From the NCBI RefSeq assembly GCF_041248615.1, contig NZ_CP158426.1: 64,000 nt of DNA. The stretch is one strand, 5' to 3'. Source of the DNA: Escherichia coli (lineage in GTDB: Bacteria; Pseudomonadota; Gammaproteobacteria; Enterobacterales; Enterobacteriaceae). Each line of letters begins with the position of its first letter. Position 1 is the stretch's first letter. This document shows positions 1-7,360 of this stretch, one piece after another. The notes beneath the pieces are model-generated. The model had not been told where the DNA came from. It ran no database searches and saw only the letters and a program-made list of their open reading frames with translations. The translations under genes and the position numbers were made by a program.

Positions 1-93
1 GCAGCAAATGCTTTTTTCATTGTGAAAAATTTCCATCTATAAGCCACCTCAATGTGGCGTCAATGAGTGTAGCACTGACTTTTGTTTCGTCCA

Positions 94-116
94 CAAAAAA
101 GCCCGCAGCGCGGGCT
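94..116 (-). terminator. Intrinsic terminator immediately after the 179-aa ORF stop
   Basis: GC stem agcccgc/gcgggct (100-116) with plus-strand A6 run at 94-99 (T-run on minus strand); overlaps stop codon 116-118. Confidence 0.55.
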
Positions 117-655
117 TACCAAAACTTGTACCACGGGGATTTATCCTTCAATGGACAATCCTTCCATCGTGTGGCCAACCATTCATATTCTTTAAAATAT
201 GTGTTTATGTTTTCTTTTTCTCTAATGGCTTGTATAAGAGGTAGCGCAATCTGATAGTTATTTACAACGGAGCTGTAAAATACTTCCTTAATCATGGTCT
301 CATCATAAGTTTTCCGCTTCACGCTCACAGCCATGCGTTCGTAGAAACCTAGACAGTAAATTATTTCTCTCTTCTCTGTCTTTTCTTCATCCGTAAGATC
401 AGCCTGCCCATTGCTTGGATACATATAAGAGCGGAATGATTTGTTCGATTCGTGAATGCGGCGCATAGTAGATAGGCCTTTCTTATAATCTACATCAAAC
501 CTGCTTTCACCAAGGAATACTGAAGTGTGTACTTTTCTCGCTGTATTTACATTATAAATAATAGTAGCGATAGCTATGAACAAGCCAAGCGAAACCGCGA
601 CTGCACTTACGATTTGAGCCACAGCCATGGCAAATTGCATTTCTTCACTTAACAC
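116..655 (-). CDS. Hypothetical membrane-anchored protein (prophage moron); no family assignable
   Basis: 179-aa ORF from GTG at 655 with GGAGA 7 nt upstream (alternative ATG at 640); single N-terminal hydrophobic helix AMAVAQIVSAVAVSLGLFIAIATIIY then charged soluble domain; AT-rich; own terminator. Confidence 0.55.
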   Translation of the reverse strand: MLSEEMQFAMAVAQIVSAVAVSLGLFIAIATIIYNVNTARKVHTSVFLGESRFDVDYKKGLSTMRRIHESNKSFRSYMYPSNGQADLTDEEKTEKREIIYCLGFYERMAVSVKRKTYDETMIKEVFYSSVVNNYQIALPLIQAIREKENINTYFKEYEWLATRWKDCPLKDKSPWYKFW

Positions 656-676
656 AAACTGTCTCCAGACATGAAA

Positions 677-696
677 ACGGGGCCTAATGGCCCCGT
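677..696 (-). promoter_or_regulatory. Perfect palindromic hairpin in the leader of the 179-aa gene (possible attenuator or stabilising stem)
   Basis: acggggcc-taat-ggccccgt, followed on minus strand by TTTC; preceded by a 10-codon mini-ORF with strong SD. Confidence 0.3.
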
Positions 697-840
697 CATT
701 AAACTATCCGAATGTTAAACGCCTTCGTACTCGTCAAATTTTCTCATGTGGGCTCCTCCTGTATCGGTGCCTAATCGCTATGGATCACCCGTGAGGTAAT
801 AGTAAGCTATTCACCTGCAATCTGTACAGAATTATTTAAA

Positions 841-856
841 GGCACATCCCTGTGCC
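841..856 (-). terminator. Putative terminator downstream of antirepressor gene
   Basis: Hairpin ggcaca-tccc-tgtgcc 10 nt after ant stop, followed on minus strand by TTTAAATAATT. Confidence 0.4.
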
Positions 857-865
857 GCCGCCCCG

Positions 866-1576
866 TCAGAAGAACCCTGCCTTGTCGTTGATGTATTCCG
901 CGTGAGTCTGGATATCACGCAGGCATTTGCTCACACCGACGATGTAGCAAAACATGGTGGTCAGCTCCGCCGCCGCGCCCGATACGTCGTGCCCGTCGTC
1001 CTGTAACTGGTTCAGCAGATTCATCAGCAGTGAGTTCTCCGTCAGGCCGAGAACACCAGACGGAGAATGAATCAGACTGCGGTAGCCGGGCTTCAGTGGG
1101 GCGCTGTAGGTTTTGTTCTCTATCTTCATTGCCTGCATCACTGCTGATGCTGTGGCGTTGGCTACCTGGTCGGCAACCATCTTTATGCGTTCTTCCTGCG
1201 GGAGCGAGTTTTTAATGTAACTTCCGGTGCGGCGGATCTGAGGAAGAACCTCACCTGTAACCCATTTACGAAAGCGGTAGGGGATAGTGCCTGGTGTCAC
1301 CGCATCGCGGCAGCGGAGGATCAGTGTGTAGAGGCCTGACTCGGAGATGATGTTGATCTCTTTTACTCGGCTGTCAAAAATCGCACGATGTTCATGCCCT
1401 ATGTTGAACATAGACCTTTCATCATCATCCAGTTTTTCAAGTGATTGGGTGACGTTTTGGATACGCAGCGCACTACAAACGTCTTGGGCTACAAACCATG
1501 GTTGGCCATCGATAATGATGGAACGGATAGGGTTAACAGATTCAAATTTGAAGATGGCAGTTTGAGCATTAGCCAT
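866..1576 (-). CDS. Phage antirepressor, Bro-N domain family
   Basis: N-terminal FKFESVNPIRSIIIDGQPWFVAQDVCSALRI matches Bro-N/KilA-N-type antirepressor signature; ATG at 1576 with GGAGAT SD (track ORF begins at upstream in-frame GTG 1591). Confidence 0.8.
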   Translation of the reverse strand: MANAQTAIFKFESVNPIRSIIIDGQPWFVAQDVCSALRIQNVTQSLEKLDDDERSMFNIGHEHRAIFDSRVKEINIISESGLYTLILRCRDAVTPGTIPYRFRKWVTGEVLPQIRRTGSYIKNSLPQEERIKMVADQVANATASAVMQAMKIENKTYSAPLKPGYRSLIHSPSGVLGLTENSLLMNLLNQLQDDGHDVSGAAAELTTMFCYIVGVSKCLRDIQTHAEYINDKAGFF

Positions 1577-1731
1577 GGTGGTTATCTCCACTTAGTGATT
1601 TTAATCACCACCGCAACGCCAATTACTGGTGGTGAACTGGACAAGGTTGGCGTACCGGCCTAAGTGGTACCGGCGTCCTTTCGGACCCCTGCCCAGCCCA
1701 CCATAATTCGGATATAGCTGTGCTTAACGCA

Positions 1732-1755
1732 TAAAAAAACCACGTCTGGCGTGGT
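1732..1755 (-). terminator. Putative intrinsic terminator between small paralog gene and ant
   Basis: Stem accacg-tctgg-cgtggt (1739-1755) with plus-strand A7 (T7 on minus strand) at 1733-1739. Confidence 0.45.
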
Positions 1756-1891
1756 ATGCGCCACTTAGTAACTCGGGACGCCAATCCCGGCACTGGATTT
1801 TGCCAGTGCCAGATTACTATGGCACAAGAGGAGTGCGATGTAAATTTACCGCAAAGGTAAATATAAGCACTCCAGTTGGTAATTGCAAACC

Positions 1892-2149
1892 TTATCTGGT
1901 TTGTTTTCGTAATTGTTCGGCACAATAGTCGAGATGTGTTTGCAGATCCCGCATAGACATCTGTGAGCTGGTGACGTAGTTAATCAGTGCAGTCAGTTCG
2001 GCAAGTGGGCCATCGACATTAAATCCATCCTTATCGAGATCCCGGAGTAATTTCATCAAGTGCGATCCCTCCACCAGTGACCTGACGCCTCCCGGCGTGT
2101 GAATCCTTTCGGTAAATCCGTCTTCCAGTGGATAGTGATACTGCTGCAT
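1892..2149 (-). CDS. Small hypothetical protein (86 aa), paralogous to C-terminal domain of the adjacent antirepressor
   Basis: ATG at 2149 with GGAGAAG SD; shared motifs with Ant C-terminus (IH-S/T-P-G-GV, LxExSxLMxLL, DGxxVxG, AELT, RD-I/L-QTH); longest ORF extends to 2272 but lacks RBS. Confidence 0.55.
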   Translation of the reverse strand: MQQYHYPLEDGFTERIHTPGGVRSLVEGSHLMKLLRDLDKDGFNVDGPLAELTALINYVTSSQMSMRDLQTHLDYCAEQLRKQTR

Positions 2150-2344
2150 CTTATCTTCTCCATGCAATAACTGTATATTTATACAGTAGCAAATAATTTG
2201 TTTGCTATCCAGCACGTTTTGCAAATCACCTGAAAGGTAATATCTATTCGTATTTACAGTCTTTCTATCCATATGTGGTTTTTCAGGTAATAGAATAACC
2301 AGATATGCGGCGCAACGGGTGCTGCGACTATCTGGAGATTTAAC

Positions 2345-4927
2345 ATGACGGTCTCAACCGAAGTTGACCACAACGAATACACCGGTAACGGAGTTACGAC
2401 ATCGTTTCCGTATACTTTCCGCATTTTCAAAAAATCCGACCTGGTTGTTCAGGTGTCTGACCTGAACGGGAACGTAACAGAATTGGTTCTGGATACCGGT
2501 TATACAGTAACTGGAGCTGGCACTTATAGTGGCGGTTCTGTGGTTCTTCCGTCTCCGCTTGCTACTGGATGGAGAATTACGATAGATCGTGTGCTTGATG
2601 TAGTACAGGAGACAGATCTTCGCAATCAGGGAAAGTTTTTTCCCGAAGTGCATGAAGATGCCTTTGACTACCTGACGATGCTGATCCAGCAATGTTTTGG
2701 GTGGTTCAGACGTGCATTGATGAAACCATCTTTGCTTGCAAAATATTACGATGCAAAGCAAAACAGAATTTCTAACCTTGCAGATCCATCACTTGAGCAG
2801 GACGCTGTAAATAATCGCTCAATGCGTAATTATGTCGATGCTGCAATCGCCGGAGTTGTTGGTGGTTTTGGTTGGTTTATTCAGTATGGTTCTGGGGCAG
2901 TATACAGAACGTTCCAGGATAAGATGCGTGACGTTTATAATGTTAAAGATTATGGGGCGAAAGGTGACAATATTAACGATGATACGCTAGCATTTATTGC
3001 AGCAGCAAATGCTCTCGGAGAGGGCGGAAAGTTATATATTCCAACAGGAACATACAATTTAACTGGTCCAGTTAATATACCACCAGTGAATATGTGCGGC
3101 GATGGGCAGGGTGAAACAGTTATTGTGTTTGACAATACCACATCACCAAAAGACGGCTTTGTTTTCGCTGCGCCAACTAAATATGATATTGAATTTGGTT
3201 TAAGTCACCTTACAGTTAAAAGAAAAGGCGGGAATGGAGCTAATGCTATATATACCCCAAGAGGTGTCGGGCTTAACCATCTAAGACCAAAACCAACATT
3301 TAGATTTTTATCTTTCTGTTCTGAAACTGCAAATATTGATTCTGATGAATTCGCTCAGAAATACGGCTGGGAATGGTCTTTTAACTGTGGTGATAGTTGG
3401 CAGTTCACAATCGAACGCATTGATGCTGTTGGATGTTATCAGATAGCCAAAAGTTATAATGAACAGTTCCTTGATGGATTCATTCGCACCGCTCCAGAAG
3501 AGGGGATTTTATCAATGCGTGTGAGTGATATCACAACGCATAATGTTGCAAATTTTTTTGAAATTAAGCAGAAGACATATTTTACATTGCTTAATATTGA
3601 TGCCGCCAAGGCATTACGAGGCATTTACGACGCTGATGATCGTATATTTGAAACGAATCGTTATGCTTATGGTGAATGTATATGCACAAATGTTGGTATT
3701 AATGCCCAACTTGAACCAGTACGGCTGGATAACAGATTCCTGCTCATCATGAATGGTATGTTTATTCACCGCGCAGCAAAAGGTTACGATCATGGTCTGG
3801 AATGGGTTGGTCTTAAGCTTAGTCGTGCTCGCGTGTGTTCATTCCAGGGAATTGAGATCGGCACTGCCAGAGGGTATTCAGGGACTAAGAAAGGGATTGT
3901 TCTTGACGCCGGTGATGCAAATAACTTTACCAATGTAACTTTTGGTTTGCTTGATGTGTGCGCACAGATTGGCGATTCCAATTCACAGTATGGTGCCAAC
4001 TTTGCAACATGCTTTAATAATGTGAGCATTAATGCTGACACCGTATTGTTATTCGATTTGCAGCTATGCAGAAATTTCCATTGTGATGGATACGGAGCAT
4101 CTTCTGCCTACACTCTTCAGCAATTCCATAGGAACAGTGATGACACAAGCAATACTTATACATTTAGTAATGTAGGTAAACACAATCTCTACACTGACAA
4201 CTCGCTGTACCTACATAATTCTGCTTCGCTGGAGAACGGGAAGAATATACGTATTGATACACGAAACGGATTATCTGTTAGCACTCAAGCAGATACTGGT
4301 TCCGCAGGAAATAACTTCCTTATAATTCGTAGGACTGGTGTTGATATAGACAGTTTTGAGTTAAGGACTCGCAGTACAGCAGGTGCATATACATATATTA
4401 ATACACCTGAAACTCATTTTTCTGGCCTTATAAAACCAACTGTTGATAATGTTAACTCAAACGGAACATCAGCATTTCGATGGTCACAGGTATACGCTGG
4501 TACTGGCAGTATCAACACGTCGAATGAAGAGCTGAAATTGCGTATTGAGGCTGACGAGAAAACAACAGAATCAGAGCGTCTTGCTGCGCTTGAAATAAAG
4601 GAAAATATCTGGAGGTTTAAATTTAAAGATGCAGTAAAGATCAAGAGTGATGGCGCTCGGATTCATTTCGGTGTTGGTGCACAAACTGTAGGTAATATTC
4701 TCAGAAAATACGGTCTTGACCCTAATAACTATGCGTTCTGGTGTTATGATGAATGGGATGATATTTATGCTCCAGAAGTATTGATTAGGAGTGTTAAAAA
4801 CAATGAAACAGGAGAGTGGTACGACGAGGAATATTACACAGGAAGGCAGATTATTATTAAACCTGCTGGCTATCAGTATGGTATCAGATACGAGGAACTT
4901 CTGATGTTTATTCTTATGTTTATTTAA
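2345..4927 (+). CDS. Phage tailspike: conserved N-terminal particle-binding domain, right-handed beta-helix (pectate-lyase-like) depolymerase domain, C-terminal peptidase-S74-type intramolecular chaperone domain
   Basis: 860 aa; ATG 2345 with GGAGA SD; N-terminus TGNGVTTSFPYTFRIFKKSDLVV typical of podoviral tailspike anchors; VKDYGAKGDNINDDTLAFIAAANA beta-helix entry motif; C-terminal S726-NEELK ... EIKENIWRF chaperone-like region. Confidence 0.85.
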   Translation: MTVSTEVDHNEYTGNGVTTSFPYTFRIFKKSDLVVQVSDLNGNVTELVLDTGYTVTGAGTYSGGSVVLPSPLATGWRITIDRVLDVVQETDLRNQGKFFPEVHEDAFDYLTMLIQQCFGWFRRALMKPSLLAKYYDAKQNRISNLADPSLEQDAVNNRSMRNYVDAAIAGVVGGFGWFIQYGSGAVYRTFQDKMRDVYNVKDYGAKGDNINDDTLAFIAAANALGEGGKLYIPTGTYNLTGPVNIPPVNMCGDGQGETVIVFDNTTSPKDGFVFAAPTKYDIEFGLSHLTVKRKGGNGANAIYTPRGVGLNHLRPKPTFRFLSFCSETANIDSDEFAQKYGWEWSFNCGDSWQFTIERIDAVGCYQIAKSYNEQFLDGFIRTAPEEGILSMRVSDITTHNVANFFEIKQKTYFTLLNIDAAKALRGIYDADDRIFETNRYAYGECICTNVGINAQLEPVRLDNRFLLIMNGMFIHRAAKGYDHGLEWVGLKLSRARVCSFQGIEIGTARGYSGTKKGIVLDAGDANNFTNVTFGLLDVCAQIGDSNSQYGANFATCFNNVSINADTVLLFDLQLCRNFHCDGYGASSAYTLQQFHRNSDDTSNTYTFSNVGKHNLYTDNSLYLHNSASLENGKNIRIDTRNGLSVSTQADTGSAGNNFLIIRRTGVDIDSFELRTRSTAGAYTYINTPETHFSGLIKPTVDNVNSNGTSAFRWSQVYAGTGSINTSNEELKLRIEADEKTTESERLAALEIKENIWRFKFKDAVKIKSDGARIHFGVGAQTVGNILRKYGLDPNNYAFWCYDEWDDIYAPEVLIRSVKNNETGEWYDEEYYTGRQIIIKPAGYQYGIRYEELLMFILMFI

Positions 4928-4930
4928 AAT

Positions 4931-4950
4931 ATAGCGCAGGGATGCGCTAT
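4931..4950 (+). terminator. Putative terminator after tailspike gene
   Basis: Hairpin atagcgca-ggga-tgcgctat 4 nt after stop; T-rich tail is weak. Confidence 0.4.
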
Positions 4951-5343
4951 TCAACTATTTTATAAAATTAATAACTATTCATGCGATATAATGTGGCCTC
5001 TTTTATCTTTGCAGAATTAAAAACTATAGAAAATATTTTGTATTATTATAAATGCTTCTGGATCATATTAATCAGTTTGCCATCTATTAGAACTTTGATT
5101 ATTGATGCATCAATTATTTAACATAGTGGTTGTGCGCAACTCCACTAACGATTGAATATAGATTGTTATTTTTGTTTACACTGTCACACAAGAACATCCT
5201 TACCTGTCAATCAACATTATTATTTTTTGATTCCATGATGTTGATTTGTGATGTAAAAAAATACATATTAAACCATATATGGATTGTAATTCGTGGTTAC
5301 AATTCTTGTTGTTTTTTTATGGTGAGATAAAAAAGGTGTTTTA

Positions 5344-5745
5344 ATGTCATTTCAATTAACAGGAGAGTCAATAAATCAATGGCTTAGCCTTGGTTCTCTA
5401 GCAGCGGTGATAGCAGGAGTGCCTCCAGAAGTAGCTCTTGGGTCTTTGTCAGGAGCGGTAATTTTTGTTACCTCTGCTGTAGAGTATCCTGTTCGTCGTC
5501 GTGTACTCTTGTCGATACTCAGCTTTCTTTGTGGTCTTCTCTTTTACAAACCAACTGCATCAATTCTTATAGGCATAGCCAGTCTAATTCCTACCATTAC
5601 TCAGGACTCTTTCGAGAAAGGGATTGTTTTCTCTGCTGGCGCATTTGTGTCAGCAATAGTCGCAGTGCGAATTGGCATCTGGCTCTATCACCATTCCGAT
5701 AATCCACGCGAGTTAATTCCTGGGAGAAAAGACGATGGTAACTAA
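5344..5745 (+). CDS. Holin-like membrane protein (3-4 predicted TM helices)
   Basis: 133 aa, several hydrophobic helices, charged C-terminus; first gene of lysis cassette upstream of endolysin. Confidence 0.5.
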   Translation: MSFQLTGESINQWLSLGSLAAVIAGVPPEVALGSLSGAVIFVTSAVEYPVRRRVLLSILSFLCGLLFYKPTASILIGIASLIPTITQDSFEKGIVFSAGAFVSAIVAVRIGIWLYHHSDNPRELIPGRKDDGN

Positions 5746-6043
5746 TGAGCTTGTTTTGCTTATCACCAATGCAGTTATTTGTACTGGCATAGCAATTCGC
5801 GTTGTCACATTCCGGCGTAACGGCTCTCAACACCGAAGGTTGGGAGGCTGGCTTGCTTATTTCCTGATTGTTGCTGCAGCTAGTATTCCTGTTCGTGTCG
5901 TCTATGCAATCTGGTTACGTACGCCAATGGCTGTGGATTTATCTGAGGTCATTATCAACGCTGTCATGCTTGCAGCGGTTATTAAAACGCGCGGTAACGT
6001 CGTGCAGATTTTTAAAATAACGAGGTCTAAACATGGAGATTAA
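5735..6043 (+). CDS. Holin/antiholin-like membrane protein
   Basis: 102 aa, three hydrophobic segments and basic C-terminal tail [19 protein letters not shown]; GGGAGA SD; overlaps the previous and next genes. Confidence 0.5.
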
Positions 6044-6662
6044 ACAATTCCAGCGAGCTGCTGGTATTAGCGAGGCGCTGGCCGCACGCTGGTTCTCGCA
6101 TATAACTTCTGCGATGAAAGAGTTTGGTATCAGCAAAACCGAAGATCAGGCAATGTTTATTGCTCAGGTCGGGCATGAGTCTGGTGGTTTCACCAGGTTG
6201 CAGGAGAATTTCAACTACAGTGTCAGCGGTCTAGCTAACTTCGTTCGGGCTGGGCGTCTCACTCAGGGGCAGGCTAATGCACTTGGTCGCCGTGCTGGTG
6301 AACCACCATTGCCACTTGAGCGCCAGCGCGCGATCGCAAATCTGGTATACAGCAAACGCATGGGTAACAATGCTCCCGGCGATGGCTGGAATTACCGTGG
6401 GCGCGGGCTTATCCAGATTACCGGTTTGAATAACTATCGTGACTGCGGAAACGGCCTAAAAGTGGACCTGCTGGAGAATCCTGAGCTGTTGACGCAGGGC
6501 GAATACGCGGCTCGTAGCGCGGCGTGGTTCTTCTCCAGCAAAGGCTGCATGAAGTATACCGGCGATATTGCACGTGTAACTTTGATTATCAATGGTGGCA
6601 GGAACGGCATCGACGACCGGAGAGCGCGGTACATCACTGCCAGTAAGGTGCTGGCGGTATGA
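6033..6662 (+). CDS. Endolysin, glycoside hydrolase family 19 (chitinase-like lysozyme)
   Basis: 209 aa; motifs [10 protein letters not shown] and [16 protein letters not shown] resemble GH19 phage endolysins; lies between holin-like genes and Rz. Confidence 0.75.
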
Positions 6663-7141
6663 TCTGGGCATTCGTAAAAGCATACTGGAAACAGTTGCTT
6701 ATCGTGGCGGTGCTTGCTGTTCTGGTCATATCAGGAGTTGTTGCCTGGAATGTACACGGTAGCCGTCAGTACGACGCCGGGTATGCACAGGCGAAGGAAG
6801 ACCGCAAAGCTGAAGATGAGAGAGTTCGTCAGCACTACGAACAGGAGAAAGCGACCAATGAACGTGAAGCTCAGCAGAGGATCGACCAGGCGCGCAATGA
6901 TGCTCTTGATGCTGCCGCTCGCGCTGGCCGGTTGCAGCAACAACTCTTTGCCATCCGTGAGCAGCTCAGGCAGTATAACGCCATTGTCGGCGCTGGGACA
7001 TCAGCCGCAGACACCGGAGTTTTGCTTGCCGACGTGCTCAGCAAATCTCTCGAGAGAAACAGACAACTGGCAGAGTATGCTGACCGGGCAGCCGAAGCCG
7101 GAAGAGTCTGCGAAAAACAGTACGACACTCTGACCAGATAG
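6659..7141 (+). CDS. Rz-like inner-membrane spanin (i-spanin)
   Basis: 160 aa; N-terminal TM helix then Gln/Arg/Ala-rich predicted coiled coil; start ATG overlaps endolysin stop (ATGA). Confidence 0.7.
6858..7133 (+). CDS. Rz1-like outer-membrane lipoprotein spanin (o-spanin), embedded in +1 frame of Rz
   Basis: ATG 6858 with AGGAGAAAG SD; lipoprotein signal [26 protein letters not shown] (lipobox LAGC); fully contained within Rz. Confidence 0.6.
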   Translation: MNVKLSRGSTRRAMMLLMLPLALAGCSNNSLPSVSSSGSITPLSALGHQPQTPEFCLPTCSANLSRETDNWQSMLTGQPKPEESAKNSTTL

Positions 7142-7251
7142 CATGGCATTTTTCATGGTACTGATTTCCGGTGACGGTATATAAAACGGTACTAGAAAAA
7201 TGAAGTTTTGGAAAAATGTTATCACTCAATTTGTTATGATTGTCGTAAATA

Positions 7252-7266
7252 ATTGAGTGGGAATGA
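7252..7266 (+). other. guaA: Candidate attR core / terminal codons of guaA (IEWE-stop)
   Basis: att gag tgg gaa tga reads I-E-W-E-stop, which I recall as the GuaA C-terminus; upstream frame is broken by stops, so only the last codons are host-like here. Confidence 0.4.
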
Positions 7267-7296
7267 TTTTGATCCCTGCACTATGAATGAACAAAA

Positions 7297-7322
7297 CCCT
7301 CTGTTACTACAGAGGGTTTTTT
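7297..7322. terminator. Bidirectional intrinsic terminator between prophage end/guaA remnant and yfgI
   Basis: ccctctgt-tact-acagaggg stem with A4 upstream and T6 downstream. Confidence 0.6.
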
Positions 7323-7360
7323 ATCTTCAAGAATTATAGGCTTGAAGTTACTTACATCGA

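Follow-up and report, generated by a model that had tools for sequence, protein, structure and literature searches.

The Escherichia coli DNA considered here, a stretch of 64,000 nucleotides (nt) of contig NZ_CP158426.1 (hereafter the window), opens with the right end of a prophage, which fills its first 7.2 kb and carries on the plus strand a tailspike gene at 2345..4927 (ATG start, 860 codons, 96.1 kDa precursor). The locus raises the question of which polysaccharide on the host surface this spike recognises, and how its parts are arranged to do so. The answer that we favour, with a probability of about 0.6, is that this is the only receptor-binding tailspike gene of an ε15-like prophage, and that its product ends in a self-releasing chaperone and has a beta-helix that targets a rare group-2 capsule. 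The structural design and the exchange of parts all have precedents; the novelty, within the libraries searched, lies in the specificity module and in its association with a rare capsule (K) locus.

The protein matched PHROG 1171, 'tail spike protein', over its full length (E=7.5e-212) and a database search returned homologues in the thousands, which together exclude a chance resemblance. Its N-terminal virion anchor, amino acids (aa) 1-165 (2345..2839, +), is of the Uetakevirus type, being 69-72% identical to the spikes of E. coli phage phiV10 and Salmonella phage ε15 (72% for the latter), and the gene lies before the lysis cassette; thus the two marks of a Uetakevirus tailspike, a genus-specific anchor and this genomic position, were both found. 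On these grounds the tailspike identity proposed in a first-pass annotation, made from the letters of the sequence, held. The N-terminal identity and the prophage context identify the prophage as an ε15-like (Uetakevirus-type) temperate podovirus, integrated beside yfgI. In the near-identical E. coli strain NRZ14408, the RefSeq annotation has the identical open reading frame (ORF) under the name 'glycosyl hydrolase family 28-related protein', and the upstream part of the prophage encodes a T7-gp14-family core protein. The spike shares with ε15 gp20 and that of phiV10 the anchor and the status of single tailspike of a temperate podovirus. However, past aa 165 the receptor-binding part is unrelated to theirs, and whereas the ε15 and phiV10 spikes target O-antigens, the one described here tracks a capsule locus.

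This association emerged from a survey of 5,426 complete E. coli genomes, in which nt 3400-4400, the core of the receptor-binding domain (RBD), served as the query and O-antigen loci were read from the wzx and wzy names given by the Prokaryotic Genome Annotation Pipeline (PGAP). The RBD core was found in 11 genomes, at 98.8-100% nt identity. Its carriers included NRZ14408 and Br_112 (both O7), AR_0085 (O6), GF4 and TUM9803 (both O21), A10 (the O17/O44/O73/O77/O106 family) and EC17CM13 (a further O-type). Specificity for O7 was rejected, as the RBD was present in only 2 of the 96 genomes with an O7 wzy (chimeric-query test) and the other carriers belonged to these different types; the same two results show the RBD to be independent of the O-locus. 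The capsule genes gave a different picture. In NRZ14408 a group-2-type kps locus adjoins yghD, and its region 2 consists of two genes annotated as 'hypothetical protein', of 1169 and 329 aa (L010 3613-8230). This region 2 occurred in 21 of the 5,426 genomes, including O25b:H4 of sequence type 131 (ST131), and in eight of the 11 RBD carriers (NRZ14408, GF4, TUM9803, A10, 2018-10-1CC, TBU0218, LSC52 and GF43), against 0.04 genomes expected (hypergeometric P=1.8e-18, or 3e-16 without a duplicate pair, kinship being ignored). Furthermore, in AVS0578 and AH21A060 the same kps region 2 occurs together with a mosaic but collinear allele of this spike; the AVS0578 allele is 90-100% identical at aa 203-412 and 700-860, and 40-70% at aa 413-700. 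The carriers with the K-locus do not represent one clone, as they differ in O-locus (three), prophage backbone (two) and attachment site (yfgI or torT). The co-occurrence with a single kps region 2, together with the independence from the O-locus, suggests that the receptor or substrate of the spike is likely to be a rare group-2 capsule rather than the O-antigen of lipopolysaccharide.

The remaining three carriers have other arrangements. In AR_0085, region 2 of a similar kps locus is of the K1 (neu) type, and the KpsE protein of this locus is identical to that of NRZ14408 (L011). In EC17CM13 the entire kps/gsp region by pheV has been lost in a deletion associated with IS26 (L013). Br_112 has no K-locus, and its tailspike match falls into two pieces around an IS4-family transposase. 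The three exceptions are compatible with a change of capsule or decay of the prophage after lysogeny.

The nature of the capsule was approached through its polymerase. Residues 424-786 of the 1169-aa protein match the Haemophilus influenzae type b polymerase Bcs3 (E=3.9e-28); the protein had no Pfam match, and its N-terminal 420 aa had no PDB match even at E<=10. The 329-aa protein gave weak alpha/beta-hydrolase and TPR matches, and, as region 2 holds just these two genes, it contains no CDP-ribitol synthase gene. To our knowledge, neither a gene nor a structure has been described for a tailspike that cleaves a linkage of a ribofuranose/Kdo-class capsule (Kdo, 3-deoxy-D-manno-oct-2-ulosonic acid). 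Polymerases in which a single ORF of >1,100 aa combines a Kdo-transferase with a ribofuranosyltransferase-phosphatase have been described for the ribose-Kdo capsules K13/K20/K23, K19, K16 and K97, and the same layout is found in unnamed relatives, one of them in ST131 (PMC12887879, PMC13171606; 2026). The architecture of the 1169-aa protein agrees with these, and by comparison with the description of KrkA (PMC12887879) we take its aa 424-786 to be the putative ribofuranosyltransferase-phosphatase part. In the literature searched, no published link at the level of a gene was found between a phage enzyme and either this RBD or Kdo/ribose capsules. It is tempting, as a tentative and rather doubtful extension, to see here the first sequence-defined depolymerase for a ribofuranose/Kdo-class group-2 capsule (the K13/K20/K23-K19-K97 group or an unnamed K-type), on a cassette spreading among ε15-, P22- and T7-like phages with gene conversion making its alleles.

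The part of the spike that would contact the capsule is a right-handed parallel beta-helix, aa 200-675 (2942..4369, +), a putative polysaccharide-binding or depolymerase module. A pectate-lyase-like helix entered by a motif near residue 200 had been proposed at the outset, and both features were recovered. PF12708 (Pect-lyase_RHGA_epim) matched aa 198-268 above its threshold (45.5 bits; cut-off 27), and the motif VKDYGAKGDNINDD, in the context VKDYGAKGD, begins at aa 200 (nt 2942) within this match. The AlphaFold model has continuous helix strands over aa 208-673, with a predicted local distance difference test score (pLDDT) >90 at aa 200-600 (whole-model mean 81.3). Foldseek returned beta-helix proteins as the nearest solved structures, namely Geobacillus virus E2 ORF18, CBA120 TSP3, AlgE4, Sf6, HK620, phi29 gp12 and K5 lyase, at 10-16% identity. 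Across 23 homologues the best-conserved stretch of the helix was aa 381-460, and D350, D360, D377, E406, D419, D429, D432, E436 and E444 were invariant or nearly so; from their conservation, these acidic residues are candidates for a carboxylate active site. Two family assignments were rejected. Membership of GH28, implied by the RefSeq name, was not supported, as there was no GH28 among the Pfam matches at E<=1; the NCBIfam rhamnogalacturonidase model scored 15.5 bits against a cut-off of 500, over aa 200-238 only, and the name derives from nothing more than the N-terminal cap that such helices have in common. Nor is the protein an endosialidase (GH58), since no propeller match was obtained and the matches were confined to the S74 domain and the final ~40 positions of PF12219.

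Beyond the helix lies a pre-cleavage stalk, aa 676-725 (4370..4519, +), with a poor monomer model; its aa 686-725 weakly match the final part of the endosialidase stalk (PF12219, 19.8-21.1 bits, under the cut-off of 25), and pLDDT falls below 50 at aa 708-723, as expected where folding requires the trimer. Directly after it, the last 135 aa of the protein (aa 726-860, 4520..4924, +; 16.0 kDa) form a domain of the intramolecular chaperone or peptidase S74 type. Sequence searches of the PDB (phmmer) matched it to 7y5s (2.4e-20), T5 pb1 4uw8 (1.8e-14), 9vvr (1e-11), the endosialidase chaperone 3gw6 (2.1e-10) and 3gud (2.4e-8), and the modelled fold (pLDDT 80-95 at aa 730-860) matched 3gw6 (E=1e-7), 4uw8 (E=2e-7) and 3gud (target TM score 0.71) in Foldseek. 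The Ser-x4-Lys catalytic dyad is present at the start of the domain: S726 (codon 4520-4522) and K731 (codon 4535-4537) both lie in GSINTSNEELKLR, and the motif EIKENIWRF is also present. S726 (TSNEELK) aligns with the Ser of 7y5s (TSDARLK), and K731 aligns with the Lys of the solved chains; in the crystallised 4uw8 (TADARLK) and 3gw6 (TANGERK) chains the aligned residue is Ala, which we take to be a Ser-to-Ala mutation of the cleavage site. All 33 homologues with the module (28-96% identity) have S726, K731, H774 and G776. In Pfam, PF13884 (Peptidase_S74) scored 22.6 bits with the isolated aa 676-860, against a cut-off of 22, and up to 46-47 bits with homologues of the same module (23 of 48 alignment rows at E<=1e-3); profile position 1 fell on S726 in the full-length and isolated-domain runs alike. 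Residues 726-860 therefore have the sequence, fold and catalytic dyad of an intramolecular chaperone. The suggestion of an S74-type C-terminus starting at S726 is thereby upheld, with a borderline Pfam score, and the domain check placed the C-terminus in no unrelated family. Self-cleavage between T725 and S726, into 80.1 and 16.0 kDa, would be the expected behaviour.

These domains suggest how the spike may work. Three 96-kDa precursor chains would assemble, with aa 726-860 acting as an intramolecular chaperone that, by homology, nucleates trimerisation of the stalk and beta-helix. A cut at T725-S726, which the invariant dyad Ser726/Lys731 would catalyse, would then remove the chaperone and leave an 80-kDa mature chain in a stable trimer. 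Judging from the homology to ε15/phiV10 and to Dpo31/Carin-1, aa 1-165 would dock the trimer to the tail, and aa ~200-675 would bind, and most probably cleave, the surface polysaccharide so that the virion reaches the outer membrane. The substrate is most likely the capsule made by the rare group-2 kps locus with the Bcs3/KrkA-like 1169-aa polymerase and the alpha/beta-hydrolase-like protein, and recombination at YGAKGD (aa ~200) and near aa ~690 shifts specificity among ε15-, P22-, T7-like and other phages.

Several points weigh against this capsule-directed, self-releasing spike. The K-locus is absent from 3 of the 11 RBD carriers, such a prophage is absent from 11 of the 21 K-locus genomes, and the co-occurrence statistic ignores phylogeny. 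An attempt to name the K-type was dropped, as the 1169-aa protein, with an N-terminus devoid of matches, could be placed in none of the five KrkA-like clusters (PMC12887879). Assignment of catalytic residues was likewise dropped, the closest solved helices being 13-16% identical and conservation being the sole guide; at this distance from solved tailspikes, hydrolase, lyase, esterase and pure binding are not separable for the helix. The PF13884 score on the full protein is marginal (19.4 bits, below 22), and both cleavage and catalysis are drawn from homology. Further points favour a conventional O-antigen-specific tailspike, an endoglycosidase like those of ε15, phiV10, HK620 and Sf6, for which the capsule link would be incidental. 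Its closest folds in Foldseek are the O-antigen tailspikes CBA120 TSP3, Sf6 and HK620, and a CatB-related O-acetyltransferase gene, of a kind usually read as an O-antigen conversion gene, adjoins the P22-type copies. In addition, the Uetake- and Lederbergvirus prophage tailspikes analysed elsewhere are O-antigen-specific, their RBDs tracking the O-serogroup (PMC10408124). However, 98.8-100% nt-identical RBDs occur here in hosts with at least five O-antigen loci (O7, O6, O21, the O17 family and one other), few of the O7 wzy genomes have the RBD, and the association with the K-locus is extremely strong, so that an O-antigen receptor is unlikely. A further explanation denies that the co-occurrence says anything about the receptor, attributing it to shared ancestry or to co-transfer of unrelated loci. 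The counts do ignore phylogeny and include near-duplicate carriers (2018-10-1CC and TBU0218 have identical coordinates; GF4 and TUM9803 have the same O21 and gnd alleles), but the carriers also comprise three O-loci, differing gnd alleles, two prophage types and two sites (yfgI and torT), and come from several continents. As P remains 3e-16 once the duplicate pair is removed, and a second, mosaic RBD allele was found only with the same K-locus, we regard this explanation as very improbable.

Two other alternatives concern the protein itself. The helix could bind without depolymerising, either purely as an adhesin or as a deacetylase or esterase that modifies the receptor; no catalytic residues could be assigned, the Foldseek matches also included the epimerase AlgE4 and PfbA, a beta-helix adhesin that is not an enzyme, and there was no match to GH28 or any curated glycosidase family. 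Yet the helix has its block of invariant acidic residues (D350-E444) where conservation is highest, which is what carboxylate catalysis would lead one to expect, and most characterised podovirus beta-helix tailspikes are enzymes, which makes a non-depolymerising helix quite unlikely. The C-terminal domain, for its part, could remain part of the mature spike, forming a distal domain whose S74 module is inactive or regulated. The marginal Pfam score and the low confidence of the monomer model around the cleavage site would fit this, as would a homologue, P0050, which has the beta-helix without the chaperone and indicates that the chaperone is not strictly required for the fold. Retention is nonetheless improbable, given the invariance of the Ser/Lys dyad, H774 and G776 across the 33 homologues and the match in sequence and fold to the solved 7y5s, 4uw8, 3gw6 and 3gud domains; the domains of endoNF and T5 pb1 are released by self-cleavage.

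A convergent CatB-related O-acetyltransferase gene (minus strand) followed every P22-type copy examined (L002 7999-8604, L014 4999-5655 and L015 5999-6655), whereas in the window the ε15-type copy is followed instead by 416 bp of non-coding spacer. If the receptor is a capsule with relatives that differ only by O-acetylation, as is the case for K13/K20/K23, the O-acetyltransferase could be a capsule-modifying superinfection-exclusion gene.

The borders of the modules were examined by blastp of 120 database homologues against the tailspike. The anchor is modelled as a beta-sandwich (aa ~9-82; pLDDT 85-94 at aa 10-80) followed by helices, and its solved homologue is Dpo31/Dpo36 of phage Carin-1 (28lx/8ck1, E=1e-32; 48% identity to 8ck1_B in Foldseek), with a match confined to aa 1-179. 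The neck or linker, aa 166-199 (2840..2941, +), has the low pLDDT expected of a trimeric coiled region and contains the junction, aa 179-193, given by the blastp boundaries of 18 RBD homologues. The conserved anchor suggested by the first-pass annotation is thus present, but its length of about 110 aa was wrong: conservation across genera extends as far as aa 165, and the joins to foreign N-termini lie at aa 179-193. From the alignments the module junction is placed at aa ~180-203 and the anchor boundary at ~165-200, in agreement with the published anchor/RBD border of phiV10, where the anchor is the first 205 aa (PMC10408124).

The homologues fell into three classes. In the first, 18 proteins share aa ~180/193-860 at 47-96% identity with differing N-termini: PF09008 (P22 head-binding), PF18668 (CBA120/Kuttervirus), PF03906 (T7), PF12571 or none recognised. 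Residues ~190-860 thus occur behind at least five anchor families, P22-, T7-, CBA120- and P2-type among them. In the second, dozens of proteins share the N-terminus only, over aa 1-165 in other genera or aa 1-~203-290 in E. coli prophages, and have unrelated centres. Members of the third, the P0068 group, match the spike at both ends (aa 1-165, 69%; aa 696-858, 53%) but not in the middle, which indicates that the C-terminal module is also exchanged on its own. In P0053, which belongs to the second class and has an ε15-type anchor, the place of S74 at the C-terminus is taken by an autoproteolytic Peptidase_G2 domain (PF11962), and in P0050 a 46%-identical beta-helix stands without a C-terminal chaperone; the pairing of helix and chaperone is therefore facultative. 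At the DNA level, the whole gene was found at ~98% in six complete E. coli genomes, gene nt 605-2583 only in other E. coli genomes within a P22-like prophage at torT, and gene nt 1-654 only in hundreds of E. coli genomes. Homology with the P22-type copies, which have the RBD behind the PF09008 head-binding domain (P0001-P0003, L002 and L015), starts exactly at the YGAKGD codons, and the 99-100% nt identity between ε15- and P22-type copies over aa 352-860 points to very recent transfer. These comparisons show that helix and chaperone have been exchanged between phage lineages as one cassette, by recombination at the conserved YGAKGD motif where the helix begins (aa ~200), and that the chaperone has been exchanged at a point near aa ~690; anchor, helix and chaperone are thus separately exchangeable. 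The swappable module that had been predicted is accordingly corroborated. Exchange of RBDs among Uetake-, Lederberg-, Kayfuna- and Kutter-type phages has already been published (PMC10408124), and tailspikes with an anchor, beta-helix and S74 chaperone are already documented in that paper and in the chaperone literature cited in PMC8217332. The same slot holds other spikes at yfgI: NZ_CP184143.1, NZ_CP133923.1 and NZ_CP028742.1 share the flanks of the locus (62-66% of a 7.3-kb query at 94-96% identity) and carry there an 'endosialidase catalytic beta-propeller' tailspike, so the slot alternates between catalytic modules.

Within the cassette, copies that are otherwise ~100% identical differ by 7-15% at the nt level in a patch at aa 203-353 (2949..3410, +). 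The window and NRZ14408 differ at 40 of 16,927 positions, of which 38 lie within nt 2952-3403. NRZ14408 has two RBD copies, an ε15-type one in the chromosome and a P22-type one on the 41-kb record phage_14408_1 (patch positions L001 12605-13066 and L015 4001-4462, respectively). The two differ at 72 sites, at each of which the window has the base of one parent (39 P22-type, 33 ε15-type), with no private bases and 38 parent switches making 39 alternating runs. Such a patch could have arisen in a sibling strain with both prophages, whose spike genes underwent gene conversion on a fine scale or patchy repair of heteroduplexes, or equally as a consensus (assembly or polishing) artefact from reads of two paralogues; in the absence of private sites, the interleaved mosaic is not proof of recombination. 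The patch alters 18 residues in the first helix turns and leaves the conclusions on the modules and the capsule unaffected.

Comparison with known systems places the spike between several types. Capsule-specific spikes on temperate podoviruses are known for K1. K1F endoNF (3gw6) shares the C-terminal chaperone with the Ser/Lys dyad and is specific for a group-2 capsule, as the tailspike here is predicted to be, but it has a GH58 beta-propeller where the latter has a PF12708 beta-helix, and the predicted substrate here is not polysialic acid; AR_0085 combines this tailspike, which is no endosialidase, with a K1 locus. T5 pb1 (4uw8) and the 7y5s tail fibre, which among solved structures are nearest to the C-terminus, share the motifs INTSxxxLK and ARxHFGxxAQ, but their chaperone follows a fibre tip and not an enzymatic beta-helix. 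The neck appendage gp12 of phi29/GA-1 (3suc, 3gq7, 3gud), which is directed at teichoic acid and whose chaperone is autocleaved, shares the design of a PF12708-type helix with a C-terminal chaperone and differs in its Gram-positive host, its N-terminus and a helix identity of 12-15%. The P22-family tailspikes (P22, Sf6 and HK620; Lederbergvirus) share the beta-helix fold, and the RBD described here itself occurs in P22-type prophages; the classical spikes of P22, Sf6 and HK620 are without an S74 chaperone and cut O-antigen.

The surroundings of the gene are those of a prophage end. A Shine-Dalgarno sequence, GGAG (2334..2337, +), can be read 7 nt upstream of the ATG. The tailspike is preceded by genes for a DUF4760 protein and a BRO-N protein and by a small ORF, on the minus strand. 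The 241-aa BRO-N protein (866-1591, -) and the 126-aa ORF (1892-2272, -), of which RefSeq annotates only an 85-aa version, look alike by eye over their C-terminal ~65 aa, the stretch LLMNLLNQLQDDGHDVSGAAAELT of the former resembling HLMKLLRDLDKDGFNVDGPLAELT of the latter. On the other side, a perfect 8-bp hairpin, ATAGCGCA-GGGA-TGCGCTAT (4931..4950), begins 3 nt past the stop codon and is the one singled out among 12 terminator-like sites around the gene (5.6 expected); promoter-like sites were at chance level (14 against 14.2 expected). The AT-rich spacer (4928-5343; about 32-37% G+C) runs from the tailspike stop to the lysis cassette (5344..7141, +), which comprises two holins (5344-5745 and 5735-6043), a GH19 endolysin (6033-6662) and a DUF2514 spanin-like protein (6659-7141). 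A strong terminator-like hairpin (12-bp stem and T run) lies at 7293-7320, between the spanin-like gene and yfgI, at about the boundary of prophage and host. The prophage ends before host yfgI (7361-7900, -), and the host genes continue with yfgH, yfgG, pdeF, ppx and ppk. No tRNA genes were found in window positions 1-10000.

The distribution of this spike adds a caveat to the use of prophage tailspikes of these genera for predicting the host O-serogroup, as here a near-identical RBD was found across O7, O6, O21 and O17-family hosts. The spike is also a candidate enzyme for a little-studied class of capsules in extraintestinal pathogenic E. coli lineages including ST131, where it may be of use in capsule typing, depolymerase therapy and tailocin retargeting. 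Finally, the cassette borders (aa ~190-200 and ~690), with the putative self-releasing chaperone, show where to cut when specificity is to be grafted from one spike to another.

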